Assembly (NCBI GenBank): GCA_026396015.1 | Contig: JAPLXP010000003.1 | Coordinates: 176,974 to 240,973, forward strand | Length of the DNA stretch: 64,000 nucleotides | Reading direction: 5' to 3' | Source of the DNA: Candidatus Nomurabacteria bacterium | Lineage (GTDB): Bacteria; Patescibacteriota; Minisyncoccia; Phycocordibacterales; UBA9973 | Shown here: positions 11,980 to 58,209 of the stretch, piece by piece | Layout: each line of letters opens with the position of its first letter | Numbering within the stretch: position 1 is the stretch's first letter | Made by a program: the position numbers and the translations under genes | The notes under the pieces: model-generated | The model's database searches: none | What the model saw: the letters and a program-made list of their open reading frames with translations, nothing else | What the model was told of the DNA's origin: nothing

Positions 11980-11989
11980 TTAACAACTA

Positions 11990-12062: not shown

Positions 12063-12067
12063 ATTTT

Positions 12068-12268: not shown

Positions 12269-12278
12269 TACTCTTACA

Positions 12279-12312
12279 CAAAAAAAACACCCCAGAAATG
12301 GGGTGTTTTTTG
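12279..12312. terminator. bidirectional rho-independent terminator (acaccccagaaatggggtgt)
   Basis: Perfect stem with A-run and T-run flanks, between convergent rpsR and the pseudouridine synthase gene. Confidence 0.7.
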
Positions 12313-12320
12313 TATATAAA

Positions 12321-13046
12321 TTATTTCTCTATACCAAGTAATCCGAGGAAGTCTTTTAGTTCTGCTCCTTCTATCTTGCGGTAGTCAGAGTCAGCTATTT
12401 TGCCTAACTGGATGTTCATGATACGTGTACGGAATAGGTCCAATACATCGTGGTGTAGAGCCTCACACATGCGTCGTATCTGGCGTTTCTTGCCTTCTGT
12501 GAGGATTATCTTGAATGTATCACTTGAGGGCTTGCTGGCCTTTGTATTGCGCCATACCTTACACTTCTTTGTAGTAAATCCATCAATACGTATACCGTTT
12601 GCCATCATACCTAAGAATACATCACCAAAGTCCAATCCAAGTTTCACTACGTATTCCTTTTCGTGAATGTATTTAGGGGATAGTAATCTGTCTGTGATGC
12701 GTCCATCGTTTGTCATGATTATCAATCCATGAGAATCTTTATCAAGACGTCCGACAGGGAATACTTTGACGGGGAACTTTGTGACTTTTAATATGTCTTT
12801 GCATCCACGCTCTGGGTTTGTAGATACTCCACGAGCCTTGTTGTATGCATAGTATACATAATCATTTTTGATGGCGCTCTCACGTACTTCTACCTCGTCG
12901 CCTTCGTATACTAGATCGCCTAGCACAGCAGGACGACCATTGATGAGTACGTGGCCTTTCTCGACAAGTGTATCTGCACCCTTACGTGTGGCGTAGTTGT
13001 TCAATGCGAGATATCTGTTTATTCTAATGGGATAAGTGAAGTTCAT
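12321..13046 (-). CDS. rRNA pseudouridine synthase (RsuA/RluB family)
   Basis: N-terminal S4 domain (RINRYLA...GADTLV..G.V.ING) and catalytic GRLDKDSHGLIIMTNDG motif. Confidence 0.8.
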   Translation of the reverse strand: MNFTYPIRINRYLALNNYATRKGADTLVEKGHVLINGRPAVLGDLVYEGDEVEVRESAIKNDYVYYAYNKARGVSTNPERGCKDILKVTKFPVKVFPVGRLDKDSHGLIIMTNDGRITDRLLSPKYIHEKEYVVKLGLDFGDVFLGMMANGIRIDGFTTKKCKVWRNTKASKPSSDTFKIILTEGKKRQIRRMCEALHHDVLDLFRTRIMNIQLGKIADSDYRKIEGAELKDFLGLLGIEK

Positions 13047-18509: not shown

Positions 18510-18531
18510 ATGATTAATAAATTGAGAAAAT

Positions 18532-18810
18532 ATGAATAAATTAATCAAAGCGACCTTACTAGGTTGCATTAAAACCCTTAGGGTTATTGCTTTCGTTATT
18601 ATCGGGTTAGGTTGTGCTGCGTTTATTGTGGCGACCTGCTATGTGGGGTTCCAGATATGGAATCACATGAATGGAGTATTACTTGTAATGAGTGACTCAA
18701 TGCGCGGAAACTTAATGATTGCCTTGGTATTAACCTCAGCTCCAGTTGCAATCGGAGCAATGGGAGTCATGAGTACCGATGCTATGCTTAAAAAGCTTAA
18801 AATAGCTTAA
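18532..18810 (+). CDS. hypothetical small membrane protein
   Basis: 92-aa ORF with two hydrophobic segments, downstream of a consensus promoter. Confidence 0.3.
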   Translation: MNKLIKATLLGCIKTLRVIAFVIIGLGCAAFIVATCYVGFQIWNHMNGVLLVMSDSMRGNLMIALVLTSAPVAIGAMGVMSTDAMLKKLKIA

Positions 18811-18862
18811 AGCTGAAATTTAAATTAAAAAACGACTATTGAAAATAGCCGTTTTTTTATTG

Positions 18863-18946
18863 TGCCGGGGAGAAGACTTGAACTTCCATGAGTGTAACCT
18901 CGCTTGCTCCTAAGGCAAGTGCGTCTACCAATTTCGCCACCCCGGC
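18863..18946 (-). tRNA. tRNA-Leu (anticodon TAG)
   Basis: Cloverleaf folded by hand: acceptor gccgggg/ccccggc, anticodon arm cttgc-cuUAGga-gcaag, long variable arm (type II), T-loop ttcaagt. Confidence 0.8.
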
Positions 18947-19123
18947 ATATTTAAATACAAGAATACAATAGCACAAAAAACTAAAATTAAAAACTACGGT
19001 CGGATATCTCGGCTTACTGCCGCTGGTATTTTTCAATCTCGTTCCTCAATAATGAAAAATCTTTCGATTCCGCCACAGACGCAAAGTAGTTTGCGTCTTC
19101 TAGCGAAAAACTTCGTTTTTCTG

Positions 19124-19195
19124 AGGCCTAGGGCGGAATCGAACCGCCGTATAAAGATTTTGCAGATCTTTGCCTTACCACTTGGCCACTAGGCC
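19124..19195 (-). tRNA. tRNA-Cys (anticodon GCA)
   Basis: Acceptor ggcctag/ctaggcc, anticodon arm aagat-ctGCAaa-atctt, T-arm ggcggttcgattccgcc, discriminator U. Confidence 0.8.
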
Positions 19196-19222
19196 TTCAT
19201 TACATCATTGTGCCTTTACATA

Positions 19223-19549
19223 CTAACCGTTTTGGAGTAATTCGTCAATTTTTTGACGATTCTTTTCTCCGAGGTCTATCGCTACATCTAGATATGGGAT
19301 AGGGTGTATCTTGAGTTGCTTCATGATGAATGTACGCATTTCTCCAAGATTTCTCTTTACGAATCCATATGCAGCTTGCTCTTTGTCTACTGGTAGGGCT
19401 GTGATTAGGATCTTTGCATTTCTGCCATCAGATGACATCTCTACTCCGGTTACAGTTATCAATGATGAAATACCACCTTCTTTTTCTATGAAGGTTGCTG
19501 CTAGTTCACGTATTCGTGATGTTATTTTTTCGTCTCTATGATTTGCCAT
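19223..19549 (-). CDS. rbfA: ribosome-binding factor A
   Basis: 108-aa KH-like RbfA sequence immediately downstream of infB (conserved order). Confidence 0.75.
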   Translation of the reverse strand: MANHRDEKITSRIRELAATFIEKEGGISSLITVTGVEMSSDGRNAKILITALPVDKEQAAYGFVKRNLGEMRTFIMKQLKIHPIPYLDVAIDLGEKNRQKIDELLQNG

Positions 19550-19552
19550 ATA

Positions 19553-21052
19553 TTATTTGATTACTGTTGTGAATGCTTCTAGTACATCTCCACCAGATAT
19601 CTCTATCTTGGATTCAACTTGCATTCCACATTCGTTACCTTCTAGAACTTCTTTTGATTTTATTTTACCAGCTTGTAGCTCTACTATCTTGCCACGGCCG
19701 ATCTCGTTCTCACGACGCATGATACGTACTACACCACCGAGGGTGATGCGTCCTTCTGTGACTCTACCACCGATGACTTGCTTGTCCTTTGTAGCACTAA
19801 AAGTCTTCAATATCATAACTTTCCCTGTGACTTCTTGACTCTCTGATCTTGGTCGGCGCTCTTCAACGAGTTCTTTTAGCCAGTCTGTGAGTTTGTAGAT
19901 GATGTCGAATGTCTGCACATTTACCTTTAGTGTCTCATTCAAATCGCGGGCCCCAGCGTCTAACTTAACTGTGAATCCTACGACAACACTCTCTTTGTCG
20001 GAGCTCGCCATCTTCAAATCAGTCTCAGATATTGCACCTACTCCACAAGAAATAATTTTGAATGAAATCTCAGAAGTATTTAGTTTTGACATCTCTTTTT
20101 CTAGAGCCTCTGCAGTTCCTGCTACATCTGTCTTTACGATTATCGGAATTACTTTTCCTTCAAATCTTTCTGTTCTTACGTTTGTTTTTTTATTTACCAA
20201 TTCACGCATTTCAACTTGGAATTTTTCTGCCTCTTTTTTACTTTCAAAAGTATCAAATGTACTGCCAACTTCAGGCATAATATCAAAACCAACAAGACGG
20301 ATAGGGGATGAAAATGTGGCTTCTTTTATAGGTTTGCCTAGGAAGTTTTCCATGATGCGAGTAGCTACCATAGCATTGCCAGCTACTACGAACATACCGT
20401 TTTTAACAGTACCATTCTTGATCAGACAGGTAGCTGTGATTCCACGCTTTGGATCACGATTCGCCTCGATGATGACACCTGATGCACCTAGCTTCTTGTC
20501 TCCATTGTATGCGTTCATATCTGCGACGAGGAGGATCATATCTAGGAGTTCTGGGATACCAGTTCCAGCTTTTGCAGAAATTGGCACAAATGGAATATCT
20601 CCACCCATACCTTCTAGGTATATACCTTTTTCCACTAGGTCCATCTTTGTCTTTTCGATATTTGCATTTGGCTTGTCCATCTTGTTTATCGCTACGATAT
20701 ATGGGACCTTGCTCTCGATGATTGTATTGTATGCTTCTATTGTCTGAGCTTTTACAGAATCCTCTGCAGACACTACTAGAATAGCGATATCAGCAGCAGA
20801 TGCTCCACGTGCACGCATTTTAGAAAAAGCCTCGTGACCTGGTGTATCTAGGAATGTGATCTTTTGATCTATACCCAACTCACCCTTGTGTGTGACCTCG
20901 TATGCAGATATATGCTGAGTGATTCCTCCAGCTTCTCCATCTACGATGTTTGATTTTCGGATATAGTCAAGAAGAGTCGACTTTCCGTGGTCGACGTGTC
21001 CCATGACCACTACTACTGGTGGTCTATTTGTTTGTGTTTTGTTTTCTTGCAT
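19553..21052 (-). CDS. infB: translation initiation factor IF-2 (short form lacking N-terminal domains)
   Basis: G domain GHVDHGKSTLLD, DTPGH, NKMD; starts directly at the G domain (499 aa). Confidence 0.9.
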   Translation of the reverse strand: MQENKTQTNRPPVVVVMGHVDHGKSTLLDYIRKSNIVDGEAGGITQHISAYEVTHKGELGIDQKITFLDTPGHEAFSKMRARGASAADIAILVVSAEDSVKAQTIEAYNTIIESKVPYIVAINKMDKPNANIEKTKMDLVEKGIYLEGMGGDIPFVPISAKAGTGIPELLDMILLVADMNAYNGDKKLGASGVIIEANRDPKRGITATCLIKNGTVKNGMFVVAGNAMVATRIMENFLGKPIKEATFSSPIRLVGFDIMPEVGSTFDTFESKKEAEKFQVEMRELVNKKTNVRTERFEGKVIPIIVKTDVAGTAEALEKEMSKLNTSEISFKIISCGVGAISETDLKMASSDKESVVVGFTVKLDAGARDLNETLKVNVQTFDIIYKLTDWLKELVEERRPRSESQEVTGKVMILKTFSATKDKQVIGGRVTEGRITLGGVVRIMRRENEIGRGKIVELQAGKIKSKEVLEGNECGMQVESKIEISGGDVLEAFTTVIK

Positions 21053-32929: not shown

Positions 32930-33027
32930 GAAATAAGCTCTTCTCTAAACACACGCATATTTTTCTGTTGAAAAATTGCTCTGCTCGGCTACCCGCCTGC
33001 GCAAGTTGTTTTTCGAAGACTTATTTT
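32930..33027. mobile_element. MITE-like dispersed repeat, copy i (short variant)
   Basis: TIRs gaaataagctcttctc / gaagacttatttt; shares gagcagag...aatttttcaacagaaaaata / ttgcgcagg modules with copies ii-iv. Confidence 0.6.
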
Positions 33028-35221: not shown

Positions 35222-35356
35222 AAAATAAGCTCTTCTCGAAAAGCACGAATATTTTTCTGGTGAAAAATTTCTCTGCTCGTCGCTCAAGAAAATAACATTC
35301 GTAAACTCATTTATTTTCTAAGCTCCTGCGCAAGACTTTTCTCGAAGACTTATTTT
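35222..35356. mobile_element. MITE-like dispersed repeat, copy ii
   Basis: Reverse complement is ~90% identical to copy iii; TIRs aaaataagctcttctcg / cgaagacttatttt. Confidence 0.65.
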
Positions 35357-35378: not shown

Positions 35379-36509
35379 ATGAACAATTTCTGGGAAAAAT
35401 TAAATAAACCATTCTTTGTATTGGCTCCGATGGCAGATGTCACTGATCCAGCTTTTCGTCGCATCATAGCAAAGTATGGCAAGCCCGATGTGACTTGGAC
35501 AGAATTCGTATCTGCTGATGGCCTTGCTCATCCTGTCGCTCGTGAGAAATTAATTCGCGATTTAGCATATACGGAAACAGAGCGTCCAATAGTGGCTCAA
35601 CTATTTTCTAGTCATCCAGAACAAATGCGTACTGCAGCTCGTATCGTGGCGGAGCTCGGCTATGATGGTATCGACATCAATATGGGATGCCCTGATAGAT
35701 CTATAGAAAAGCAGGGTGCAGGTGCTGCGATGATGAAGACTCCAGATATAGCAGGTGTAATAATTCAAGCAGCCAAGGATGGGATACGAGATGCAGGCAA
35801 GGATATTCCATTGTCTGTAAAAACTCGCGTAGGATACAACCAAGTTCAGATAGATGAGTGGATACCATTCCTACTTTCTCAAGATATCGCCACTCTGACT
35901 GTGCATGCGAGAACTCGAAAAGAATTGTCCTCTGTGCCTGCAAACTGGTCATATGTAAAAAAAGTTGTAGAGATACGAAATAAAATGGGAGTAAAAACCA
36001 GGATCATTGGCAATGGTGATGTGCACAATGTGGCTCATGGTAGGCAGCTTGCTCTTGAAACGGGCTGCGATGGCATCATGATCGGCCGCGCGATATTCGG
36101 CAATCCGTGGATGTTCGCTAATACTGTGGATGATACGAGCAAAAAAAATGTATCCGAAAAAAGTCTTGCGCAGCGCGACTGGCGCGAGCAGAGCAAATTT
36201 TTAGCAAAAAATTATGTGTGCTTTTTGAGGAAATATTTTTTGGGCGAGTCTAAAAAAGATAAAGATAGATATTGGCTAGAGAATAAGATAGATATACCAG
36301 TATCTGAGAGACTACGAGTACTAGTAGAGCATACAAAACTATACGAAGAACTACTGGGTGACATTAAAAGTTTCTCAATAATGAAAAAGCACTACAAGGC
36401 ATACTGCAATGGATTCACCGGTGCAAAGGAGCTGCGTATGCAATTGATGGATTCTAATAGTGCAGAGGAGGTAGAAAATATAATAGATACTTTTTTAAAA
36501 ACACTTTAA
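35379..36509 (+). CDS. tRNA-dihydrouridine synthase
   Basis: Dus TIM-barrel N-terminus FVLAPMADVTDPAFRRI and catalytic Cys region GIDINMGCP. Confidence 0.85.
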   Translation: MNNFWEKLNKPFFVLAPMADVTDPAFRRIIAKYGKPDVTWTEFVSADGLAHPVAREKLIRDLAYTETERPIVAQLFSSHPEQMRTAARIVAELGYDGIDINMGCPDRSIEKQGAGAAMMKTPDIAGVIIQAAKDGIRDAGKDIPLSVKTRVGYNQVQIDEWIPFLLSQDIATLTVHARTRKELSSVPANWSYVKKVVEIRNKMGVKTRIIGNGDVHNVAHGRQLALETGCDGIMIGRAIFGNPWMFANTVDDTSKKNVSEKSLAQRDWREQSKFLAKNYVCFLRKYFLGESKKDKDRYWLENKIDIPVSERLRVLVEHTKLYEELLGDIKSFSIMKKHYKAYCNGFTGAKELRMQLMDSNSAEEVENIIDTFLKTL

Positions 36510-37735: not shown

Positions 37736-38059
37736 ATGAAAACTCTAAAGTTTGTACAAAATTTAGTCCCACTAGTTTTGTCTGAAGAAAAGACTTCTAC
37801 TTGGAGGCTCTTTGATGATAAAGATTTAAAGGTAGGAGATAAATTGAATCTGATAAATAAGGATAATGGAGAAGAATTTGCAAAGGCTATAATTATTGGA
37901 GTTAAAGAAAAAAAGCTAGGTGATATAAACAATGATGATTATGTTGGTCATGAAAAATTCAAGGGAAAGGAAATAATGATGAATACGTATAAAATGTATT
38001 ATGGAGACAATGTGGACAAAGATACTTTAATAAAAATGATTAATTTTAAAATGTTATAA
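37736..38059 (+). CDS. ASCH domain protein (PUA-like RNA-binding fold)
   Basis: LVLSEEKTSTWRLFDDKDLKVGDKL matches the ASCH signature (ILSGKKTIEIR...kvGD). Confidence 0.5.
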   Translation: MKTLKFVQNLVPLVLSEEKTSTWRLFDDKDLKVGDKLNLINKDNGEEFAKAIIIGVKEKKLGDINNDDYVGHEKFKGKEIMMNTYKMYYGDNVDKDTLIKMINFKML

Positions 38060-38067
38060 TATTTTGT

Positions 38068-38433
38068 ATGAAAAATTTAGAAAATTTATATTCAAAATTA
38101 GATAATTCCAAAAATAGAATTGATGGAGTTTTACAGGATTATGCAAATGATTTTTTTGCCCTGCATATTCAATTAATGAGTGGAATAAAAAATGTGAGAG
38201 ATTTATTTAAAAATGGATATAAAATTAAAACTGTACAGGAATATTTGTTTCAACATAGAAATGAAATTCATTCCATAAAAAATATTACACCAGAAGATGA
38301 GCAGGATCCAGTTTTCGTTGAAAAATCTGAAAAATTAAATAACCTTGCAAATACATTAAATATACTTGGTGAACATATCAATGAAGTTGAAATTAAAAAA
38401 ACATTAGAAGAAGTTAAAAAAATAATATATTAA
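38068..38433 (+). CDS. hypothetical protein
   Basis: 121-aa helical ORF; no motif recognised. Confidence 0.3.
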   Translation: MKNLENLYSKLDNSKNRIDGVLQDYANDFFALHIQLMSGIKNVRDLFKNGYKIKTVQEYLFQHRNEIHSIKNITPEDEQDPVFVEKSEKLNNLANTLNILGEHINEVEIKKTLEEVKKIIY

Positions 38434-38506
38434 TTCTCAATAAAAACAGTATGTAATGTACTGTTTTTGTTTATAAAATAAGGGTATTTTGACTACTTGT
38501 GGGGTA

Positions 38507-38535
38507 TTGACAAAATAAGCCAAAGGGTGTATAAT
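38507..38535 (+). promoter_or_regulatory. sigma70-type promoter TTGACA-N17-TATAAT
   Basis: Consensus hexamers 10 nt upstream of ATG 38545. Confidence 0.5.
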
Positions 38536-38544
38536 AGGAACATT

Positions 38545-39003
38545 ATGAAAAAAGCAATTATATTTTTATCTGTTGGCTTTATGGCTCTGGGAATGGCATT
38601 TTTCACTCTTCCTGCAAAGTCTGAAGCTTTTACAGTATCTTTTGGTAATCTCGGAAATTACGGATCTAGTTATGGAGCAGGTTATGGTATAGGATATGGC
38701 AATACTTATGGTGGATACGGAGGTTATGGCTATGGCTATGGCCAAGGCGGCGCTGTGACATCTGGATACACTAGTGGTACTGGATACCCTTCAGCAAATT
38801 ATAATAATTATGGTATGGGTGGATACGGAATGAATACAGGATATGGTATGAATACAGGATATGGTATGGGATATGCCTCAAGCTACGGCATGGGTTATGG
38901 TTCAAGCTATGGAAGGGGCTACGGTTCAGGATACGGTATGGGATACACATCAGGTTATGGAGGATACGGAGGAGGATACGGATGTTTTATATTTTGTTTT
39001 TAA
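38545..39003 (+). CDS. secreted Gly/Tyr-rich low-complexity protein
   Basis: Signal peptide MKKAIIFLSVGFMALGMAFFTLPAKSEA then ~120 aa of GYG/YGMG repeats ending CFIFCF. Track start 38497 lies upstream of the -10 element. Confidence 0.5.
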   Translation: MKKAIIFLSVGFMALGMAFFTLPAKSEAFTVSFGNLGNYGSSYGAGYGIGYGNTYGGYGGYGYGYGQGGAVTSGYTSGTGYPSANYNNYGMGGYGMNTGYGMNTGYGMGYASSYGMGYGSSYGRGYGSGYGMGYTSGYGGYGGGYGCFIFCF

Positions 39004-39011
39004 AAGAATAA

Positions 39012-39052
39012 ATAAAAAGAGCCGCGACATTTGTCGCGGCTCTTTTTATTTA
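39012..39052. terminator. bidirectional terminator (aaagagccgcgacatttgtcgcggctcttt)
   Basis: Perfect 13-bp stem with flanking A/T runs between convergent genes. Confidence 0.75.
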
Positions 39053-40105
39053 TTCTTCGTCTTGTGGTTTCTCTATTGTGAGTGTCTCTACTTTTAAAGC
39101 TTCACCTGTGATACGCATCACGTCCTTGTCTACTTTTCGGAATTCATGATTAGACTTGTTGAAGTGGTTCACTGTGGTCTCTAATGCCGCACCCATCTTC
39201 TTGTGATACTCTTCGTACTTTTGTAGGTGTGTACCTAGTTCACCGACGCGCTTGATGATATCTTTTGCACCTTCCTCGATCTGCATAGCTTTTAGGCCCT
39301 GTAGGACTGTCTGTAGATAAGCTAGGAATGAAGTCGGCGATACGATGATGACTTTGTACTTACTAGCAGCTCTCTGTATTAGATTCTCTGTATCTTCACC
39401 GACGAGTGCACCGATTTTATTTACGAGTAAATCATAATAGATTGCCTCGTGAGGGATGAACATAAATGCGAATTCCATCGTACCATTCTCGGGTTGGATA
39501 TATTTTGAAGTTTCAGTAATACGATTCTTCAAATCATTTACAAAGACTTTTTCTAATCTGTCTTTCTCAGCCTTGTCACTCGTTTCGCTTATTCTGTTGT
39601 AATTTTCAAGCGAGAATTTTGAATCAATCGGGATTATTTTATCTTTTACAAATACCGCTGCATCCACTATCGTGCCGTCTGGAAAAGGGAATTGCATCTG
39701 ATATGAACCCGGTGGCATGATATTTTTCAAGAGTGTCTCGAGATAATATTCACCCAATATTCCACGCTGCTTTGGATTCTTCAATATGTCTTGGAGGCTC
39801 TGGAGCTGATCTGTGAATCCTACTACCTGCTTGTTAGTCTCGTCTAGTCTTGTGATCTTTTCTGTGATGTCTGAGATAATTCTTGAAGTCTCTGAAGATT
39901 GGTATCGCATAGACTGAGTCATCTCTTTTTGACTCTCGGTCAATTTATTATCAATAGTCCGAGTGAGCTCATTCATCTGAGAGAGGAGTAGCTGTAGTCC
40001 TGTGTCATCCTTTTTCTCTTCAGGTTTTGTATTTTTCTTTAGCAAAAGAAAAGCGATAATAATGCCCAATATAATTCCCAAAATAATTGTAATAGCTGTT
40101 GTCAT
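39050..40105 (-). CDS. rmuC: DNA recombination protein RmuC
   Basis: N-terminal TM plus coiled coil, conserved IPIDSKFSLENY and EFAFMFIPHEAIYYDLL motifs of the RmuC family. Confidence 0.75.
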   Translation of the reverse strand: MTTAITIILGIILGIIIAFLLLKKNTKPEEKKDDTGLQLLLSQMNELTRTIDNKLTESQKEMTQSMRYQSSETSRIISDITEKITRLDETNKQVVGFTDQLQSLQDILKNPKQRGILGEYYLETLLKNIMPPGSYQMQFPFPDGTIVDAAVFVKDKIIPIDSKFSLENYNRISETSDKAEKDRLEKVFVNDLKNRITETSKYIQPENGTMEFAFMFIPHEAIYYDLLVNKIGALVGEDTENLIQRAASKYKVIIVSPTSFLAYLQTVLQGLKAMQIEEGAKDIIKRVGELGTHLQKYEEYHKKMGAALETTVNHFNKSNHEFRKVDKDVMRITGEALKVETLTIEKPQDEE

Positions 40106-40154
40106 TCACATATTTTAGCATAAAAAGGTTATTTTTAGACCTTAAAATTACCCT

Positions 40155-40182
40155 TTACAAAATCAATCAAATATGATATAAT
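40155..40182 (+). promoter_or_regulatory. sigma70-type promoter TTTACA-N16-TATAAT
   Basis: Shares an atgatataatac -10 region with the helicase B promoter. Confidence 0.45.
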
Positions 40183-40202
40183 ACAAAAAAATTATTTGAA
40201 AA

Positions 40203-42212
40203 ATGAAAGTCAAAAAACTTAATCAGTTACCAGCCTGGAAGGCTAGTGCGATCCGTAACTTAAGAAAATACTTAAGATTACATGAAAACCCCCCTGTCCT
40301 TCGCGGGTTACAAATTCCACTTTTCAGTGATGTTATTGACTTTGTGCAAAGTGGTAAGAATGCTGGATATGTCAGTGCTCCTATGGGGACTGGTAAAACA
40401 GTTATTTTTACCGAATTCGCAAATGCACTAAAACAAAGAGTAATTGTTGTCGTTCCATCCATTCTTCTTATTCATCAGACCAGAGAAGAAATTGCTTCAT
40501 TTGCTCCATCGTTACGTGTCGGTCTTCTTTATTCAAAGAAGAAACAATATGATACTGACGTTGTTATTACTACTTATACCTCGTTAGGTATTGGTATCAA
40601 AAATGGAACACTTAAAGTAAAAGACTTTAATTGGCTGATTTTAGATGAAGCTCATGAGAGCTTGTCTGTAAGTCGCCAAAAGGTAGTCAATCGTTTCAAA
40701 CACGCAATCCGTTTAGGTTTTACTGCTTCTGAAAAATATGATGAGGAAAAACAATTGTCAAAATTATTGCCAAATGAAATTCATCGCATCACTATTCTTG
40801 AAGCCGTAGAAAGTGGTTTGCTGTGTCCTTTTTCTGTTGTCATTGCTCAAACTACAACGGATTTATCTAAAGTTGGTTCTGTTAATGGAGATTATGATAA
40901 AAAACAGCTTGAAAAAGCTGTAAACAAGGAGGGGCGAAATCGTTCGGCTGTAGCACTTTATGAGACAACTCCTTTTTATAAGGGTAAATCTTTGATGTGT
41001 CATTGTGTATCTATTGAGCACGCGGAAGCTGTAGCAAGAAAATTTCGTGCCAATGGGTGGCGAGCCGAAGCCGTGCATAGTCAGATTGAAGATGATACTA
41101 GAGGTAAAAGACTTCAAGATTTCTGTTCGGGGAAATTAACGGTACTTTGCAATGTTGATATTCTTACACGAGGATTCAATGCACCTATCGTGAGTATTTG
41201 TTTCAATCTTCGTCCTACTCGTTCGCTTGTAGTCGCTACTCAGAGAGCTCGTAATTTGCGCATAGACAGAAACAATTCAGACAAGTTTGCTGTTGTCGTT
41301 GATTTTGTTGATGCAAATTTTAATCGCTCTAATCCGCCTCTAACTTTTGATAAAGTTGTAGATGGGTCTGCTTTAGTTGTTCCTTCTTTCTGGAAAGATA
41401 ATAAAATTTTTTCAGAAATTTCAAAACAATTGCAACCTGCTATTCCTATAGATGATTTAAAGGTTTATGTTGAAACTAGTGAAGTACTAAGAATTACTGG
41501 AAGTATGCAAAAATGGGAAGAATCAAAGTGGGTTTCCGAAAAAGATATTAAAGATTTGTTCAATCAAAAAGGATGGAAAAACCAAAGAGAATATGATTCT
41601 CAAAGAACTAATTTTGTTGGTTTTCCTCATTCGGTTAATTTTCCTGATGTGTACAAGAAAACATTTGGTGAAGTTGTTTTTGGAAAAAAAGGGCTTAAGG
41701 ATGTCGAATGGCTTTTTGCAGAAGAAATCAAAAAATTATTTTTCGAAAATGATTGGAAAAATCAAAAAGGATACGAAAAAAACAAACCTTCCAATTGCCC
41801 TTCACCTTCAAATTTTCCAAGAATTTATAATACAACATTTAGTGAAATGATGTACGGAAGAAAAAAAGAAGTTAACGGTGTATGGTTGTCAGAAGAACAA
41901 GTTCGTGAACTTTTTTTAAAGGAAAAATGGAAAAATCAAGCTGAATATGACAAAAAAAGACCATCAGGATGTCCAAGCTTTAGTAATTTTAGGAAGTTTT
42001 ATGGAAAACCGTTTAAGGAGGTTATGTATCCTAATGGTAAATGGCCTTCAGAAGTGGATGTAAAAAAACTATTTATCGAAAATAAATGGAAAGATTACAA
42101 AGAATATAATAAAAATAAACCAAAAAATTATCCTTATTCTTTTCATTTCCCTGATATTTACAAAAAAACCTTCAATCAACTTGTTGGAGGAGAGTATAGA
42201 AAACATCTTTAA
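40203..42212 (+). CDS. SF2 (DEAH/ResIII-type) helicase A with four C-terminal ~55-aa repeats
   Basis: Walker A APMGTGKT, DEAH box LILDEAHES, motif VI TQRARNLR. C-terminus has 4 repeats of W.SE..IK.LF...WKNQ.EYDKK.P...PS.SNFP.IY.KTF. Confidence 0.8.
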   Translation: MKVKKLNQLPAWKASAIRNLRKYLRLHENPPVLRGLQIPLFSDVIDFVQSGKNAGYVSAPMGTGKTVIFTEFANALKQRVIVVVPSILLIHQTREEIASFAPSLRVGLLYSKKKQYDTDVVITTYTSLGIGIKNGTLKVKDFNWLILDEAHESLSVSRQKVVNRFKHAIRLGFTASEKYDEEKQLSKLLPNEIHRITILEAVESGLLCPFSVVIAQTTTDLSKVGSVNGDYDKKQLEKAVNKEGRNRSAVALYETTPFYKGKSLMCHCVSIEHAEAVARKFRANGWRAEAVHSQIEDDTRGKRLQDFCSGKLTVLCNVDILTRGFNAPIVSICFNLRPTRSLVVATQRARNLRIDRNNSDKFAVVVDFVDANFNRSNPPLTFDKVVDGSALVVPSFWKDNKIFSEISKQLQPAIPIDDLKVYVETSEVLRITGSMQKWEESKWVSEKDIKDLFNQKGWKNQREYDSQRTNFVGFPHSVNFPDVYKKTFGEVVFGKKGLKDVEWLFAEEIKKLFFENDWKNQKGYEKNKPSNCPSPSNFPRIYNTTFSEMMYGRKKEVNGVWLSEEQVRELFLKEKWKNQAEYDKKRPSGCPSFSNFRKFYGKPFKEVMYPNGKWPSEVDVKKLFIENKWKDYKEYNKNKPKNYPYSFHFPDIYKKTFNQLVGGEYRKHL

Positions 42213-42261
42213 AATTTTCACCTTCCACAAACACAGAGCGATAAAATGCTTTTGTGAATCA

Positions 42262-42305
42262 CAAAAGAGCAGAATCAACGAAGTTGATTCTGCTCTTTCT
42301 TTTTG
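42262..42305 (+). terminator. rho-independent terminator (agagcagaatcaacgaagttgattctgctct)
   Basis: Perfect 13-bp stem plus T-run, preceded by conserved palindrome ttttgtgaatcacaaaa. Confidence 0.7.
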
Positions 42306-42306
42306 C

Positions 42307-42336
42307 TTGACAATGTGTGTATTTTTATGATATAAT
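42307..42336 (+). promoter_or_regulatory. sigma70-type promoter TTGACA-N18-TATAAT
   Basis: Consensus hexamers upstream of helicase B. Confidence 0.55.
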
Positions 42337-42362
42337 ACTTAAAAATTAACAACTAAATATAA

Positions 42363-44261
42363 ATGAAAATAAAACTTTATGATTATCAAGAAATTGCCTA
42401 TCAGAAGGTAATACAGGCACTCAATAGTGCGGGTATCGCTCTGATGGTTATGGCAACTGGATTAGGTAAGACAATCGTATCAGCTCTGATAGCTCGATTC
42501 TTTTTGTCTTCTGGATCTGGTAAGCGCATTCTCTTTCTTTCCCATGATAATGGCATTCTAGAACAATCTTATCTGAAATATAAATTAATTTTAGGTAACG
42601 AATATTCTTATGCTCGTTTTTTTGGTAAAAAGAAAAATTGGAATGCAGATAAACATGATATTGTTTTTGCTACATTCCAATCCAAGCCGCATAAATTTTT
42701 TAAAGCGGACCACTTCGACTTTATTATTGTTGATGAGAGTCACCACAGTAAGGCTGATACTTATTTCTCTACATTAAATTATTTTACTCCTGTATGGAAG
42801 CTCGGTATGACTGCGACTCCTGATCGTGAAGATGAACGAGATATTCGTTCTATCTTTGGAAAAGAAGTTGTTACTTATGATCTTTCTGAGGCCATGGCAA
42901 ATGGTTGGCTGACACCTGTTGAATACAAGATTCTCAGTGATGGTATGGATTTAGCGATGCTTGAAGAAATTTGCCAAGAGGTATTAGTCGAAAATGTGCG
43001 TATATCTGAAAGTCAGCTCAATGAACGAATATTTATTCGTACGAGGAGTGATGAGCAGTGTAAACAGATTTTAGATTATACTAAAAATGGTTTAAAGGCT
43101 ATCGTGTTTTGTGCAAACATTACACACCTAGAACACATTATGGAGCTATTACCGAATAGTGTTGCCGTTCATTCTGGACGTACTGATGACGAGAATGATG
43201 AAGCAGAAATAATGTACCGTACTGGAAAAGCCTCCCATATACTCGTTGTAGATAAATACAATGAAGGGAAGGATTTACCTGATACTGATGTCCTTGTTTT
43301 TCTTCGTACTACTGATTCATACCGTATCTGGGTTCAACAGCTTGGACGCGGGCTACGCCTATTTCCTGGAAAAGATAAAGTTATTATTCTGGATTTTGTT
43401 GCAAACATTGAACGTGTAAAAAATGTTCATAGTTTTGCAATGCAGGTAAAAGAATATGGAGGAGGTGGAATAAATCAGGAATTCAAACTTGATACACCTC
43501 TTCATCTTGAAGGAAAAAACTTTAGCTTTGATTTCAGTTCAGAATTGGTAAATCTTATGTCTGTGTTTGAAAAGGTTAGTTTGAATTGTTATGCAAATTG
43601 GAAAGAAGCATCGAATGCTGCGATCAATCTTGGTATCACAAAACAAGAAGAATATCGTGCTTATTATAAGCAAGATATTAGACTACCCAGTGCTCCTGAA
43701 CAAGTCTACTCTGATTTTCCAGGATATAAAGTATTCTTAGGTGGAGTTTCTAAGGACTATTATCTAACTTGGCAAGAAGCCTCAATTGCTTCGATTAAAC
43801 TTGGTATTAAAACACAAGATCAATACCATAAGGATTATATGAATGATCCTAGATTGCCTTCACAAATAAATACTTTTTATCCTAATTTCCCAGGTTCAAA
43901 AGTTTTTTTTGGGGGAGTTGAAAAAGATTATTATTTAACCTTAAAAGAAGCACAAGAAGCAGCTAAAAAGTTGGGTATAAAAACCTACAAAGAGTATTCA
44001 AAAAGATACAAAGAGGATCCTAAGTTGCCATCTGTTCCAGGAAGATTTTATTCAGACTATGTAAGTTTTGATTTATTTATCGGCTCAGATTATTATTCAA
44101 CATGGCAAGAAGCTTCCGATTCTGTTAAAAAATTGAATATTTGTACTAGGGCAGATTACCAAAGAAAACAATTTTATAAAAAAGATTTAAGACTCCATTC
44201 AAATCCAGATATGTATTACAAAGATTTTCCAGACTGGCAAAATTTTTTAGGAAAAGAGTAA
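42363..44261 (+). CDS. SF2 (DESH/ResIII-type) helicase B with four C-terminal ~56-aa repeats
   Basis: Walker A ATGLGKT, DESH box IVDESHHS, motif VI QQLGRGLR. C-terminus has 4 repeats of YYLTW.EAS.A.KKLGIKT..EY.K.YK.DPRLPS.P...YS.FPG...FLGG. Confidence 0.8.
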   Translation: MKIKLYDYQEIAYQKVIQALNSAGIALMVMATGLGKTIVSALIARFFLSSGSGKRILFLSHDNGILEQSYLKYKLILGNEYSYARFFGKKKNWNADKHDIVFATFQSKPHKFFKADHFDFIIVDESHHSKADTYFSTLNYFTPVWKLGMTATPDREDERDIRSIFGKEVVTYDLSEAMANGWLTPVEYKILSDGMDLAMLEEICQEVLVENVRISESQLNERIFIRTRSDEQCKQILDYTKNGLKAIVFCANITHLEHIMELLPNSVAVHSGRTDDENDEAEIMYRTGKASHILVVDKYNEGKDLPDTDVLVFLRTTDSYRIWVQQLGRGLRLFPGKDKVIILDFVANIERVKNVHSFAMQVKEYGGGGINQEFKLDTPLHLEGKNFSFDFSSELVNLMSVFEKVSLNCYANWKEASNAAINLGITKQEEYRAYYKQDIRLPSAPEQVYSDFPGYKVFLGGVSKDYYLTWQEASIASIKLGIKTQDQYHKDYMNDPRLPSQINTFYPNFPGSKVFFGGVEKDYYLTLKEAQEAAKKLGIKTYKEYSKRYKEDPKLPSVPGRFYSDYVSFDLFIGSDYYSTWQEASDSVKKLNICTRADYQRKQFYKKDLRLHSNPDMYYKDFPDWQNFLGKE

Positions 44262-44316
44262 AATTTTCATTTGTACTTTCTAAAACACAGAGCAATAAAT
44301 TGCTTTTGTGATTCAC

Positions 44317-44362
44317 AAAAAAGCATAATCAACTTCGTTGATTATGCTTTTTCTTTTTTTTA
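44317..44362 (+). terminator. rho-independent terminator (gcataatcaacttcgttgattatgc + T-run)
   Basis: Paralogous to the helicase A terminator; preceded by ttttgtgattcacaaaa palindrome. Confidence 0.7.
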
Positions 44363-44435
44363 AAATTTTATACCTATTTACAAAAATATTTAGATATTGT
44401 AATGTAAAAAGAAACTAAAGAAAGGAAAATTAAAT

Positions 44436-45179
44436 ATGAAAAAATCATTAATTATTAAAACAGAAAGCAATTTCGTAAGAGAGTTGTTATTGCTACTCAA
44501 GTATTATGATTGCTTAACAGAAGCAGATGAAATTCTTTCTCAAATAGGAGGGGTTGGAAGGAGAGAGGAATATCTTGATGCTGGAGACGAAAAACCTTCT
44601 TTGTTCCGTAGTAATGTAGATATGGACTTAGAGCCATTTGTGCTTGAAGCTATTTTGCTAAATCAAATTAAAAAATCAGATTTTTTTTCTGTAGAAATTA
44701 AGTTCAACTACAAGAATTCTAATAAAATTTTAAATGAACTTGATTCTAAGACTGAATTTACTGGAATTGGGGACGTAGAAGATTTTCTTGGTATTAATAA
44801 TTTTTCATTAGAAATTGAAACTAAGGAGGTATTTTTTATTCCTATAATAAGGACAAAAAATATTAAGGATATTAAAAAATTTATTTCAGATAAAGGCTTC
44901 GAGCCTCTTGGTACATTTGAATTACTTTCTTATCTTGGTTATGTTCATTCACTTAGGAAAAAATCAAATTGGGAAAAATCTCAAAAACTCCTACCTAAAG
45001 CTTTCCATGGAAAGGGTGTACCTATAATTGCTATACGTGATATTTTACTTAGAAGTCATAAGCAATCATATCAAAAATCAGTATTACTTTCTGCTCAGAA
45101 TCTTTATCACATCAGAGTAAGAAGTTCTGCTGGAGGATTCAATAAAATCGTTTATGTTATCTGTGAGAAAAAGAAATAA
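44436..45179 (+). CDS. hypothetical protein
   Basis: 247-aa ORF, no motif recognised; sits between helicase B and the exonuclease. Confidence 0.4.
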   Translation: MKKSLIIKTESNFVRELLLLLKYYDCLTEADEILSQIGGVGRREEYLDAGDEKPSLFRSNVDMDLEPFVLEAILLNQIKKSDFFSVEIKFNYKNSNKILNELDSKTEFTGIGDVEDFLGINNFSLEIETKEVFFIPIIRTKNIKDIKKFISDKGFEPLGTFELLSYLGYVHSLRKKSNWEKSQKLLPKAFHGKGVPIIAIRDILLRSHKQSYQKSVLLSAQNLYHIRVRSSAGGFNKIVYVICEKKK

Positions 45180-45223
45180 AATAAAGCCACTATTATTAAT
45201 TAATGGTGGCTTATTTTTTCTAT

Positions 45224-45946
45224 TTAAACTAATTTTCCTAAATGATATCTTAAAGTATATATCCAATCTTCGTCGTCTGGATCGCTGGTTTCTTTTTGAT
45301 TGAGGAACCATTCGAGGTATCCACGGTCGATGCGGGCTACGTCGGCTACAGATTTGCCAGAGTGTTTTCCAAAAGAGAACATACTCATGAGTGATGGCTT
45401 TGATGATATCTCGATCATCTCAGCGTAGGCACCCTCGTCGTCTGTATTTTTTTCTTTCTTTATCTTTTCTACTAGTCTCTCAAAAAGTTTTTCCAGTACG
45501 AGTACATCACCGAGTGCATCGTGGGCCTGAGCCTCGATGTCGATATCTAAAAAGTATCGTAGATATTGGAGCTTGTGCTGGGGGATCTTGCCATCTTTAT
45601 CGAGTGCTCGCACTACGCGGAGTGTGCAGATAGTATGCGCAGGTACGATGCCTTCTTTCTTGATCATTCCTATATCAAATTTTGCATTGTGGGCTACCAT
45701 GATAGTATCGCCGTCCTCGAGCATTGATTTGATATTTTTATAATCATTACTTTCCTTGAATGATGGCTTGTCCGCCACCATCTTGTTTGATATATGCGTT
45801 ACAGCAGACGCTTCGGGTGGGATCTTCATCCCTGGATTATAAAGTTCGCAGAATATCTCGTCACCAGTTTTATAAGCTAGCTGACACAGAAGGTCTGTCG
45901 CATTTATACCTGTAGTCTCAGTATCTAAAAATACAATTTTTTTCAT
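45224..45946 (-). CDS. DEDDh 3'-5' exonuclease (DnaQ/epsilon-like) with C-terminal extension
   Basis: Exo I FLDTETTG, Exo II MVAHNAKFDIGM, Exo III HDALGDVLV. Confidence 0.75.
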   Translation of the reverse strand: MKKIVFLDTETTGINATDLLCQLAYKTGDEIFCELYNPGMKIPPEASAVTHISNKMVADKPSFKESNDYKNIKSMLEDGDTIMVAHNAKFDIGMIKKEGIVPAHTICTLRVVRALDKDGKIPQHKLQYLRYFLDIDIEAQAHDALGDVLVLEKLFERLVEKIKKEKNTDDEGAYAEMIEISSKPSLMSMFSFGKHSGKSVADVARIDRGYLEWFLNQKETSDPDDEDWIYTLRYHLGKLV

Positions 45947-46002
45947 GCATTTATTTTATCACAATATGCGCCATCAAAATAGCTTCCATTAAAGTGTAAT
46001 TA

Positions 46003-46135
46003 AAATAGTCCTTGAAAAAAGTCTTGCGCAGGAACTTAGAAAATAAATGAGTTTACGAGTATTATTTTCTTGAGTGACGAGCAGAGAAATTTTCTACCAA
46101 GAAAATATTCGTGCTTTTTGAGAGGAGCTATTTTA
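46003..46135. mobile_element. MITE-like dispersed repeat, copy iii
   Basis: Full-length copy with modules aagtcttgcgcaggaacttagaaaataaatgagtttacgag...gagcagagaaattttctaccaagaaaatattcgtgctttttgagaggagctatttt. Confidence 0.65.
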
Positions 46136-49686: not shown

Positions 49687-49736
49687 TGGGGCACATATTA
49701 AAAAAACCGCATAAAGCGGTTTTTTTAATATGTGCC
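49687..49736. terminator. perfect 25-bp-arm inverted repeat / bidirectional terminator that includes the 3' end of tRNA-Lys
   Basis: atggggcacatattaaaaaaaccgc ATAA gcggtttttttaatatgtgccccat; right arm overlaps the tRNA-Lys acceptor 3' strand. Confidence 0.7.
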
Positions 49737-49805
49737 CCATGGAGGGATCGAACCTCCGACCGTCTCCTTAAGAGGGAGCTGCTCTACCAGCTGAGCTAAC
49801 AGGGC
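49733..49805 (-). tRNA. tRNA-Lys (anticodon CTT)
   Basis: Acceptor gccctgt/atggggc (two GU pairs), D-arm gctc-agctggta-gagc, anticodon loop cuCUUaa, T-arm ggaggttcgatccctcc. One mismatch at the base of the anticodon stem. Confidence 0.7.
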
Positions 49806-49814
49806 ATAACGAAT

Positions 49815-50030
49815 TTAAAACATTAAACTAAACTATTTACCATGTATTCTGTTATTTACCAAAACAGCGTAACAAGGCTTATCTAAACTTAAAACATTAA
49901 ACTAAACTATTTACCATGTATTCTGTTATTTACCAAAACAGCGTAACAAGGCTTATCTAAACTTAAAACATTAAACTAAACTATTTACCATGTATTCTGT
50001 TATTTACCAAAACAGCTAACAGGGCGTAAA
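49815..50030. repeat. tandem direct repeat, 74-bp unit x ~3
   Basis: Unit ttaaaacattaaactaaactatttaccatgtattctgttatttaccaaaacagcgtaacaaggcttatctaaac at 49815, 49889, 49963. Last copy diverges to cagctaacagggc, which is identical to the tRNA-Lys 5' end. Confidence 0.8.
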
Positions 50031-50122
50031 AGTTAAAAAATATTTAACTCTGTCATTATTGCAGAAAAAGCTATTTTTGTAAATAGTGTTTGCTTTTCTT
50101 TGTAAAGGAGTATAATTAGTGT

Positions 50123-52831: not shown

Positions 52832-54481
52832 ATGAAAAAATTTTATTCAGCTTTATTGATTTTGCTTTTAGTTATTGTTCTTGTTCCCACTAAATCTTTT
52901 GCTAGTTCTACTTGGGTTGATGTGTCTTCAGCAGGATCTGGTGCTTGGCAGGCTGTGGCGTCTTCATCTAATGGTACAAAATTAGTCGCAATTGTTTATG
53001 GCGGTGGAATATATACCTCTTCAGATAGTGGTGTGACTTGGGCGCCTCAATCTTCTGCTGGAAATAGAAATTGGAAGAACGTAGCATCTTCATCAGATGG
53101 TACAAAATTGGTCGCCACTGCTTATGGTGGTGATATTTATACCTCTACAAATAGTGGTGTAACTTGGGTAGATCAAACTACATCTGGTGCTCGTAACTGG
53201 AATGGGTTAGCTGTGTCTTCTGATGGATCAAAAATTGTCGCTGCTGTTTATGGTGGTGATATTTATACTTCTACTAATGGTGGTGTTGACTGGACTGATA
53301 GAGTTTCTGCTGGAGTGTCAAATTGGAATACTATAGCTGCCTCTTCTGATGGTGTTAATATTGTTGCTGGTATTTTTGGTGGTTATTTATCTACTTCAAA
53401 TGATGGAGGTGCTACTTGGTCTATACAAAATTCTTCTGGTTCAAGAAATTGGTTTTCATTAGCTTCTTCATCTGATGGTACAAAATTAGCTGCAGTTGAA
53501 TATGGTGGTGGAATTTATACCTCTACTGATAGTGGTGTAACTTGGGTAAATAAAACTTCCGCTGGTAATCATAATTGGAAAAGTATTGCTATTTCGGATG
53601 ATTTATCAAGATTAATTGCTGTTGCATATAGTGTGGATTATGTTTATCTTTCTATAGATGGTGGTTTAACATGGATACGTCAAGACTCTGCAGGTGCTAG
53701 TTACTGGCAATATGTAACAGCATCTTCTGATTTTACTAATGTGGTTTCTCTTGTTTATGGTGGTGATATTTATCATGGATTATTTACTTTTCTTCCTGTT
53801 GTGTCAACTGGATCTTCCTCAAGTACAACATTAGATTCTACTGTTCTATCTGGATCAATAAATTTTTCTGGAGGTGAGAATAATACTGTCAGAGGTATAA
53901 ATTATGGTCTTACTTCTAGTTATGGTTCTGTTGTTTCTGAAATTGGCTCATACGGAGCAGGGACTTTTAACTTGAATGTTACAGGTCTTACTTGTGCTAC
54001 TACATACCACTATTCAGCTTTTTCTACAAATGGTGTAGGTACTAGTACGGGTTCTGATTCTACTTTTGATACATTACCTTGCCCAGTTCATCATTCTGGT
54101 GGTCATCCACCAATAATTACTTCTTCTGGAGGAGGTGGTGCACCAGTTGTGACAGATATTATAGTTCCTACAGTTGTGATCCCTCCTGCGCCAGTTGAAA
54201 ATAAGATTATTTTAAATAATGTTGTTACTAGTTCTTCTTCATCATCAAATAAACTCTCAAAGCATTTAAATATAAATATGAAGGATCCAGAGGTTAAAAT
54301 ACTACAACAATTTTTAATCGATCAAAATAAAGGGTCAAAATCTAAATTGATTTACTTGAGTAATTCTTTCGGACCAAAAACAAAATCTGCACTTGTTGAA
54401 TGGCAAAAATCTGCAGGATTGGAATCTGACGGAGTATTGGGACCCGAGACTAGATCAAAGATAAACGATATTTTAAAATAA
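52832..54481 (+). CDS. secreted BNR/Asp-box beta-propeller protein with FN3-like module and C-terminal peptidoglycan-binding domain
   Basis: Signal peptide. ~7 repeats SAG..NW...A.SSDGTKLVA..YGG.IYTS..SGVTW (Asp-box S.D.G.TW). C-terminal PG_binding_1-like LVEWQKSAGLESDGVLGPET. Confidence 0.6.
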   Translation: MKKFYSALLILLLVIVLVPTKSFASSTWVDVSSAGSGAWQAVASSSNGTKLVAIVYGGGIYTSSDSGVTWAPQSSAGNRNWKNVASSSDGTKLVATAYGGDIYTSTNSGVTWVDQTTSGARNWNGLAVSSDGSKIVAAVYGGDIYTSTNGGVDWTDRVSAGVSNWNTIAASSDGVNIVAGIFGGYLSTSNDGGATWSIQNSSGSRNWFSLASSSDGTKLAAVEYGGGIYTSTDSGVTWVNKTSAGNHNWKSIAISDDLSRLIAVAYSVDYVYLSIDGGLTWIRQDSAGASYWQYVTASSDFTNVVSLVYGGDIYHGLFTFLPVVSTGSSSSTTLDSTVLSGSINFSGGENNTVRGINYGLTSSYGSVVSEIGSYGAGTFNLNVTGLTCATTYHYSAFSTNGVGTSTGSDSTFDTLPCPVHHSGGHPPIITSSGGGGAPVVTDIIVPTVVIPPAPVENKIILNNVVTSSSSSSNKLSKHLNINMKDPEVKILQQFLIDQNKGSKSKLIYLSNSFGPKTKSALVEWQKSAGLESDGVLGPETRSKINDILK

Positions 54482-57999: not shown

Positions 58000-58209
58000 G
58001 AAATAAAATAATTATTGAAAAAGTCTTGCGCAGGAGATTAGAAAATAAATGAGTTTACGAATATTATTTTCTTGATTGAGGGGATTAAATAAAAACTGCT
58101 TTTTATTTAATCCGGTTCGCGAAGCGAAATTGCCGATGCGAAGCAGGCAATAGGGAGAGATATTTTTCAACAGAAAAATATTCGTGCTTTTTGAAATAAG
58201 TTATTTTAT
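58000..58209. mobile_element. MITE-like dispersed repeat, copy iv (with ~75-nt nested insertion)
   Basis: Same modules as copy iii, interrupted at cttgattgag | gagagatat by gggattaaataaaaactgctttttatttaatccggttcgcgaagcgaaattgccgatgcgaagcaggcaatagg. Confidence 0.6.

Follow-up and report, generated by a model that had tools for sequence, protein, structure and literature searches.

Accessory SF2 helicase genes with apparently exchangeable repeat tails occupy a variable slot between exoX and rmuC in a Candidatus Nomurabacteria genome

The ResIII/DExH translocase core of superfamily 2 (SF2) helicases is common to HsdR of the EcoAI family, RadD (YejH) and XPB/Rad25, and helicases of SF1 or SF2 also form part of Hachiman, Gabija and DISARM. 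Phages encode such cores in the family phrog_16 ("DNA helicase"), while SauUSI-type type IV restriction enzymes combine the ATPase core with PLD nuclease and DUF3427 recognition domains. The genomes of Patescibacteria are tiny and, to our knowledge, hold few recognised defence or repair systems, yet they still keep thousands of repeat-tailed helicases, often several per genome. Here we describe two genes of this kind, Hel1 (40203-42212, plus strand) and Hel2 (42363-44261, plus strand), in a 64-kb stretch of a metagenome-assembled genome of Candidatus Nomurabacteria (Patescibacteria), which is referred to below as the window. Both products are identical to NCBI proteins, and the same locus was found in two Logan assemblies. 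An original prediction, made from the DNA sequence, had described positions 39050-45946 as an accessory island with rmuC, two SF2 helicase genes, an open reading frame (ORF) of 247 codons without known motifs and a DEDDh exonuclease gene, and all five ORFs were confirmed with these coordinates and identities. We show that the helicase genes are accessory, that they lie in a variable hotspot between an exoX-like gene and rmuC, and that they are members of an annotated yet uncharacterised family.

In Hel1, the SF2 core spans residues 1-442 (40203-41528, plus strand), is of the DEAH type and has Pfam matches to ResIII (84 bits), DEAD and Helicase_C (40 bits). The Hel2 core spans residues 1-408 (42363-43586, plus strand), is of the DESH type and matches ResIII (106 bits) and Helicase_C, with a further Pfam match to INT_rpt (PF14882) in the rest of the protein. 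Both proteins retain intact motifs I, II, III and VI (GTGKT, DEAH, TAS and QRARNLR in Hel1; GLGKT, DESH, TAT and QQLGRGLR in Hel2). Judged by sequence similarity, the core is a phage-type ResIII/DExH ATPase that stands closest to phrog_16, followed by SauUSI, HsdR, RadD and XPB. The highest-scoring family was phrog_16, with 208 bits for Hel1 and 241 bits for Hel2. IMG/VR contains hundreds of core-only relatives, and the viral sequences share the SF2 core at 28-36% identity over residues 1-350, but they lack repeat tails, and the genes of the window lie outside any phage replication module or prophage. The top match by sequence in the PDB was 7clg (E = 3e-36 for Hel2 and 4e-19 for Hel1), which we take to be the SauUSI type IV restriction enzyme, followed by an HsdR, RadD and XPB. 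The PADLOC model mREase_IV also matched the helicase regions of Hel2 (135 bits) and Hel1 (74 bits). The likeness to SauUSI-type enzymes is limited to the ATPase core, since Pfam found neither PLDc_2 nor DUF3427 in Hel1 or Hel2.

The likeness to HsdR, RadD and XPB likewise lies in the translocase core. The helicases carry no HsdR nuclease domain, hsdM and hsdS are not among the genes of the block, and the RadD C-terminal domain is missing from both proteins. Hel1 and Hel2 score far below all curated NCBIfam equivalog cut-offs: 77 and 104 bits, respectively, against 720 bits for RadD (YejH), 40 and 132 bits, over the core only, against 550 bits for HsdR EcoAI, and 41 bits against 610 bits for XPB. 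Core hits to HamB and DrmD were weak (E = 1e-3 to 1e-8), those to HamB reaching only 1.6e-3 and 5.6e-3, and there is no HamA-like (DUF1837) neighbour. The partner proteins HamA, GajA and DrmA/B/C were not found at the locus, and the layouts of Hachiman, Gabija and DISARM do not fit, as the original prediction had noted.

Together with an orphan ORF (ORFan), hyp247, the two helicase genes make up a 5.1-kb variable insert (40106-45223) on the strand opposite to the genes on either side of it. One of these, exoX-like (45224-45946, minus strand), encodes a DEDDh 3'-5' exonuclease of 240 amino acids with matches to RNase_T (61 bits, cut-off 24) and ExoX-like_C (43.9 bits, cut-off 26.5); the other, rmuC (39050-40105, minus strand), encodes a protein of 351 amino acids that matches PF02646 with 177 bits (cut-off 26). 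Neither reaches the NCBIfam equivalog level (24 against 810 bits for E. coli RmuC; 118 against 245 and 93 against 202 bits for the exonuclease). A metagenome scan with RmuC yielded 80 contigs whose RmuC is 58-99% identical, and we mapped the window proteins onto these contigs by tblastn. Apart from the contig L093, every contig with sufficient flanking sequence, more than 20 in total, has the order Obg-MYG1-(VTT)-holin-YqeY-ExoX-RmuC without a helicase. ExoX and RmuC are encoded on one strand, usually about 60-190 bp apart in helicase-free contigs; in L094, the nearest helicase-free relative in the RmuC tree, 4 bp separate the exoX stop codon from the rmuC start codon. In more distant relatives, YqeY abuts RmuC.

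Since no helicase separates exoX from rmuC in more than 20 relatives, both belong to the conserved backbone. They form the ancestral pair in this Nomurabacteria lineage and are probably one operon; we know of no earlier description of an exonuclease-RmuC operon. The adjacency itself spans many related Patescibacteria contigs (loci L094-L120). The helicase insert is missing from L094-L107 and from other relatives, so that the sharp break in synteny that the original prediction had expected is present, and the block is not core synteny of the lineage, the finding that the prediction had named as speaking against it: most close relatives have no helicase here. The accessory segment is 40106-45223 only; the island first proposed holds for its helicase segment, and its outer genes rmuC and exoX are excluded from it. 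The expected deviation in base composition is also there. The GC content at third codon positions (GC3) is 0.20-0.24 in the inserted genes (Hel1 0.230, Hel2 0.243, hyp247 0.198) against 0.42 in the flanking pair (rmuC 0.415, exoX 0.423), although relative to the window mean of 0.305 (standard deviation 0.074) the insert deviates modestly (z = -0.8 to -1.4). In both evolutionary rate and GC3, rmuC and exoX resemble core genes; the exoX product is 81% identical in the loci L087 and L253. Of the usual marks of a genomic island, the segment has patchy presence between syntenic flanks and a shift in composition, but not the hallmarks of mobility, and the tRNA-Gln gene at 37657 lies 2.4 kb outside the insert and is not a tRNA target at its border.

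The rmuC/exoX site is a hypervariable helicase slot. It is filled in four loci (the window, L087, L093 and L253), always with a helicase gene divergent from rmuC across a spacer of about 95-101 bp. The window slot holds Hel1 with four H1-type repeats, Hel2 with four INT_rpt repeats, and hyp247. The sister strain L093 (RmuC 99% and ExoX 95% identical) has a single helicase of 749 amino acids, in which a Hel2 core (89% identity) is joined to six H1-type repeats, and a different ORFan. Its upstream region is a hybrid that corresponds to the window promoter P1 up to the -10 box and then to the Hel2 5' untranslated region (5'UTR), and its 3' flank is homologous to the 3' element of the window (E = 2e-12). 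In L087, the slot contains a single Hel1-type gene, 41.5% identical to Hel1, between flanking proteins that are 59-81% identical to those of the window. L253 comes from the same sample as L087, and its DNA flanks are 80-90% identical to L087. Its helicase joins a Hel2-type core, which shares 70% identity with Hel2, to a tail of one INT_rpt and three GW-type repeats. The two loci L087 and L253 are homologous across the spacer between rmuC and the helicase gene, promoter included; the homology ends about 10 nt ahead of the helicase start codon and picks up again immediately after the stop codon of that gene.

These alignments indicate that close relatives exchange a whole ORF or its tail, and that the flanks with the promoter/5'UTR and the 3' terminator remain conserved. 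On the RmuC tree, the filled slots are spread over two non-sister clades with many empty slots between them, which implies gain on more than one occasion, or else transfer through recombination within the conserved flanks. The locus resembles defence and other variable-gene hotspots in its conserved flanks, alternative non-homologous contents in close relatives, lower GC content and fast evolution. It differs from them in that the slot always holds a helicase of one superfamily rather than mixed systems, and in that exchange appears precise to an ORF or domain between a conserved promoter and a conserved terminator. With flanks that are identical or nearly so from strain to strain, and at least four core-tail combinations in one slot, the locus amounts to a clean natural experiment.

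The tails that take part in these combinations are of several kinds. The Hel1 tail (residues 443-669; 41529-42212, plus strand) consists of four H1-type repeats of about 55 amino acids, for which there is no Pfam model; each unit matches a hidden Markov model (HMM) of the H1 repeat at E = 1e-25 to 1e-27, and the INT_rpt HMM has no hit in this tail. The Hel2 tail (residues 409-632; 43587-44261, plus strand) consists of four INT_rpt repeats (75 bits, cut-off 26.5), with unit matches of E = 1e-22 to 1e-26. At the DNA level, the periods are 180/174/159 in Hel1 and 171/171/162 in Hel2. The count of four repeats of about 55 amino acids at the C-terminus of each helicase, as first proposed, was thus borne out, but the two arrays belong to different sequence families. 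Homology between H1-type and INT_rpt repeats was not significant with profiles of four sequences, and the HMMs do not cross-hit; richer profiles gave a weak match (E = 1.2e-3, hhalign probability 19%). Both tails are basic (pI 8.7-9.5) and contain 18% aromatic residues. H1-type tails also occur on Hel2-type cores (proteins P0002, P0074, P0086 and P0103) and INT_rpt tails on Hel1-family cores (P0125, P0132 and P0139), and other relatives carry helix-turn-helix (HTH), double-stranded RNA-binding (dsRBD) or sigma-70 domains in place of repeats. There are at least three tail types (INT_rpt, H1-type and GW-type), freely combined with either core type.

An AlphaFold2 (AF2) model of two INT_rpt units has a confident helical fold (predicted local distance difference test, pLDDT, 94.9). 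The sole above-noise match for this pair was found in BFVD (Foldseek E = 6e-4, probability 1.00), where the pair matches the tail of entry A0A2H4UVX6, a DEXDc SF2 helicase of Bodo saltans virus, a giant virus. On the strength of this match, the helicase-plus-repeat architecture may also exist outside Patescibacteria. Full-text literature searches for PF14882 turned up no functional study.

The accessory segment comprises two autonomous transcription units, each with a promoter, an SF2 helicase ORF and a two-hairpin terminator, and the ORFan. The predicted promoter P1 of Hel1 (40154-40182, plus strand; TTTACA-17-TATAAT with TG, 11/12) lies within the 97-bp divergent spacer between rmuC and Hel1, and P2 of Hel2 is at 42307-42336 (plus strand; TTGACA-18-TATAAT with TG, 12/12). 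They are the two best sigma-70-like sites in 38.9-46.3 kb, so that the separate TTTACA/TTGACA-type promoters of the original prediction are well placed. A TTTACAAA...TATGnTAnAAT promoter as at P1 precedes Hel1-family genes in L086, L087 and L089, and a P1-type promoter also precedes the Hel2-type ORF in L253. At the 3' end of each unit, a TTTTGTGA(A/T)TCACAAAA palindrome is followed by a strong intrinsic terminator with a 16-bp stem. In copy 1 (42213-42306, plus strand), the palindrome lies at 42250-42267 and the intrinsic terminator, with its T-tract, at 42264-42298; in copy 2 (44262-44358, plus strand), they lie at 44303-44320 and 44318-44352. From stop codon to T-tract the copies are 84-87% identical, and one pair in the terminator stem shows a compensatory change from G-C to T-A. 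The window holds only these two copies, with 0 expected by chance, and the paralogy of the 3' ends noted in the original prediction is therefore real.

The 3' element is confined to this strain group; a structural analogue occurs in L003, where both INT_rpt helicases, 38% identical to each other, are followed by a nearly identical two-hairpin element, which shares only the ATCAAC-NNN-GTTGAT stem top with the window elements. RNAalifold analysis of five copies gave a poor alignment across genomes and supported the terminator stem alone, and in Rfam, tRNA-Gln aside, nothing in 37.5-46.7 kb rose above sub-threshold hits at the level of chance. We considered and rejected an integron attC site as an identity for the element: by inspection, its ATCAAC...GTTGAT stem top misses the RYYYAAC...GTTRRRY core, and there is no integrase. 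In our reading, the promoter/5'UTR at one end and the terminator at the other are conserved bookends, homogenised within a genome and used as substrates for recombination. Two further terminators lie close by. A hairpin at 45184-45212 separates the convergent hyp247 and exoX, and a perfect bidirectional terminator with a 20-bp stem (39009-39052), which gave several sub-threshold Rfam hits as chance matches, lies between rmuC and the neighbouring gene for a Gly/Tyr-rich protein.

Homologs of Hel2 are numerous (more than 4200 matches), and nearly all named sources are Patescibacteria. Many of these relatives are named "integrase repeat-containing protein", and Hel2 is 37-66% identical over 90-100% of its length to more than 100 listed proteins with the same Pfam architecture (ResIII, Helicase_C and PF14882). 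Hel2 is thus a full-length member of the INT_rpt-tailed Patescibacteria helicases, whereas Hel1 has the same layout and core but no INT_rpt units. Fewer relatives were detected for Hel1, among them Magasanikbacteria and Pacebacteria proteins. When genome contigs were scanned with a Hel2 alignment, the matches listed were mostly core-only helicases from other phyla.

Members of the family lie in many unrelated sites, and the family is mobile in Patescibacteria genomes. One is found between dnaJ and cysS, another between mur genes and mreB with a serine recombinase gene adjacent, and a third in an island with GmrSD/HNH, EcoRI-type methylase and SNF2-methyltransferase genes, directly downstream of a large serine recombinase gene. 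Others occur near Fic, RelB, zeta-toxin and methylase genes. In L254 (8001-11306), a Hel2-type helicase with GW-type repeats and an HhH-GPD glycosylase interrupt the S10 operon between rplB and rpsS. We also observed a zeta-toxin-like gene directly downstream of the INT_rpt helicase in L091, and, 6 kb from that helicase, five tandem GIY-YIG genes of 82 amino acids each (18519-20007).

As a whole, the locus is best explained by SF2 helicase cassettes with exchangeable tails that split the conserved exoX->rmuC pair, a reading that we hold with moderate confidence. Each helicase is a predicted ATP-driven translocase or helicase on double-stranded DNA, and its basic, aromatic-rich repeat array would tether or target it to particular nucleic-acid sites. 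The promoter and terminator bookends would supply the homology for gain, loss and replacement of cassettes. The least certain part is the function, which may be accessory and serve in conflicts with mobile or foreign DNA, whether in a defence-like way or in competition between mobile elements. Such a role is suggested by the patchy distribution, fast divergence, module shuffling, low GC content, restriction- and phage-type cores, and the genes that neighbour family members. A helicase role in defence is plausible, and housekeeping repair is less likely than a role in conflict.

Several observations weigh against this reading. Pfam found no nuclease or other effector domain in Hel1 or Hel2, and a PADLOC scan matched no system beyond generic helicase-core hits; the case for defence is therefore circumstantial. 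Nucleic-acid binding by the repeats is suggested only by their charge, their repeat architecture and the HTH, dsRBD and sigma-70 tails of relatives, and the INT_rpt fold has no significant match among solved structures. The insert lacks an integrase, and its borders show neither terminal inverted repeats nor flanking direct repeats. The context statistics rest on about 15 helicase loci. Finally, a helicase lies beside rmuC in four related genomes and in one Uhrbacteria genome, which could mean a functional link between them. We treat this recurrence as a property of the slot, of which rmuC and exoX are neighbours and not necessarily partners; helicase and rmuC each usually occur without the other.

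A broader proposal is that these genes constitute a single-gene system for conflict with mobile DNA across Patescibacteria, in which INT_rpt, H1-type and GW-type arrays serve as programmable specificity modules, ORFs and tails are swapped via the bookends, and the slot might supply nuclease partners. We put this forward tentatively, as a speculation that more probably fails than holds. If the tails are indeed specificity modules, they would represent a new modular form of DNA targeting and a candidate mechanism of immunity or competition in a major uncultured radiation. If they are not, the locus still shows movement of self-contained cassettes, including into a ribosomal protein operon.

Among the alternatives to exchangeable cassettes that serve the host, the one that survives best is that the helicases are cargo of selfish or mobile elements, derived from phages and spread by serine-recombinase elements or homologous recombination without benefit to the host. 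The strongest family match is to phrog_16, with its many core-only viral relatives, and one cassette sits within the S10 operon. Large serine recombinase genes are also enriched near family members, with five in 247 kb around them against none in 922 kb of RmuC-centred loci and the window, and they are directly adjacent to the helicase in L086 and L088. The 64-kb window itself, however, contains no serine recombinase or other phage gene; the viral relatives are tail-less, and INT_rpt had no match in cultured phage genomes. Intact helicase motifs and the conservation of the family in thousands of proteins from Patescibacteria also point to selection for function. We therefore consider cargo without host benefit possible but doubtful.

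The original prediction had seen in the block the typical make-up of an anti-phage or foreign-DNA-processing module, and on this account the five genes would form one system in which the helicases work with the RmuC and ExoX nucleases. The divergent placement of helicase cassettes beside rmuC in all four filled slots would fit such a module, as would the Hel2-like helicase 0.8 kb from an rmuC gene in the Uhrbacteria locus L009 and the RmuC domain contained in the PADLOC DRT model, which gave a hit at E = 3e-11. Yet the exoX-rmuC pair is helicase-free in more than 20 relatives, which is the ancestral state in outgroups, and about 10 of the 15 helicase loci have no rmuC or exoX nearby. The five genes do not occur together as a set, the flanking pair has the rates and GC3 of core genes, and PADLOC offered generic core hits and no match at the level of a system. 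We regard a five-gene module as unlikely.

The original prediction had also proposed an old tandem duplication of a whole helicase transcription unit, after which the two copies would have diverged in the usual way. Such an event would account for the layout common to both units, the four C-terminal repeats in each, the -10 box (TATGATATAATAC) that they share and their common 3' element, about 95 nt long. Against it, the Hel1 and Hel2 cores are 24% identical to each other and fall into two separate families, both spread across Patescibacteria, each core having far nearer homologs in other genomes (with identities of up to 51% for Hel1 and 89% for Hel2); the tails come from different repeat families, and relatives have either a single one of these genes or a chimera. 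Non-coding flanks that are about 85% identical are too young for coding regions at 24%, which argues against one old duplication and indicates recombination or cassette exchange. The shared -10 box was rejected as evidence of duplication because it is not above chance in the window and matches the general TGnTATAAT consensus elsewhere. The duplication is accordingly abandoned here as very unlikely.

We give equally little credence to translocases associated with transcription that, like RapA, HelD or XPB, would act with sigma factors or RNA polymerase. Four proteins from both helicase families (P0081, P0148, P0174 and P0214) are fused to sigma-70 regions 2-4, a sigma-like gene of 447 amino acids (11905-13248) lies between the two INT_rpt helicases of L003, and similarity to XPB/Rad25 is weak, with ERCC3_RAD25_C hits in relatives. 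Such fusions are rare, however (about 1-3% of listed homologs), the sigma domain may be one more DNA-targeting tail, and a helicase that most close relatives lack is hard to reconcile with this role. Lineage-specific housekeeping repair by RadD- or RecG-type helicases is highly improbable: RadD ranks among the top NCBIfam matches, and genes for recombination and repair lie next to the helicases, but the scores fall far below the RadD cut-off, and the genes are missing from most close relatives, evolve fast and are exchanged between strains.

The third gene of the insert, hyp247 (44436-45179, plus strand; 247 amino acids), has the lowest GC content of the block (0.294). It has no hit in Pfam, NCBIfam or PHROGs and two weak, marginal hits in PADLOC (E = 8e-4 and 4e-3). 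A word-indexed search of 5.8 billion clustered proteins recovered only hyp247 itself, and an exhaustive HMMER search of 1.84 billion representatives gave one real homolog, 36% identical and located on a 1.4-kb contig without a helicase; the other, TPR-like hits were spurious. Structure prediction, as first suggested for this protein, produced an unusable single-sequence AF2 model (pLDDT 31). We conclude that hyp247 is an ORFan without a link to the helicases.

Outside the block, the window is not solely core housekeeping, as had been claimed. An ASCH-domain gene and an ORF of 121 amino acids (hyp121) in the 37736-39003 region have the lowest GC content of the window (0.27 and 0.23; z = -2.2 and -3.1), and the neighbouring Gly/Tyr-rich secreted protein (38497-39003) is 63% identical in the sister strain, in which RmuC is 99% identical. 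The fast evolution of this protein and its low-GC neighbours show that the left flank of rmuC is also variable.

Repeats resembling miniature inverted-repeat transposable elements (MITEs) are found at 36141-36242, 45999-46135 and 58001-58208, and in reverse orientation at 32931-33027 and 35223-35356. The copy at 45999-46135, said to flank the block, is real, but it sits between exoX and yqeY, in a spacer that is not part of the variable segment. The copy at 36141-36242 falls within the dus ORF (35379-36509), at about residues 255-288, and leaves the reading frame intact, and Dus matches in relatives are 26-56 amino acids shorter, which suggests an in-frame insertion of a MITE-like element into a coding gene. 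Three tandem 74-nt copies (81-99% identical; 49812-50033) directly abut a tRNA-Lys gene (49732-49805, minus strand), and five tandem 126-nt repeats (66-75% identical; 52956-53663) lie within an ORF of 549 amino acids (52832-54481) with a GC3 of 0.153. A 36-nt motif of CTAGAACCTAG-like units occurs in four copies in the window, at 11490, 12032, 31952 and 52074.

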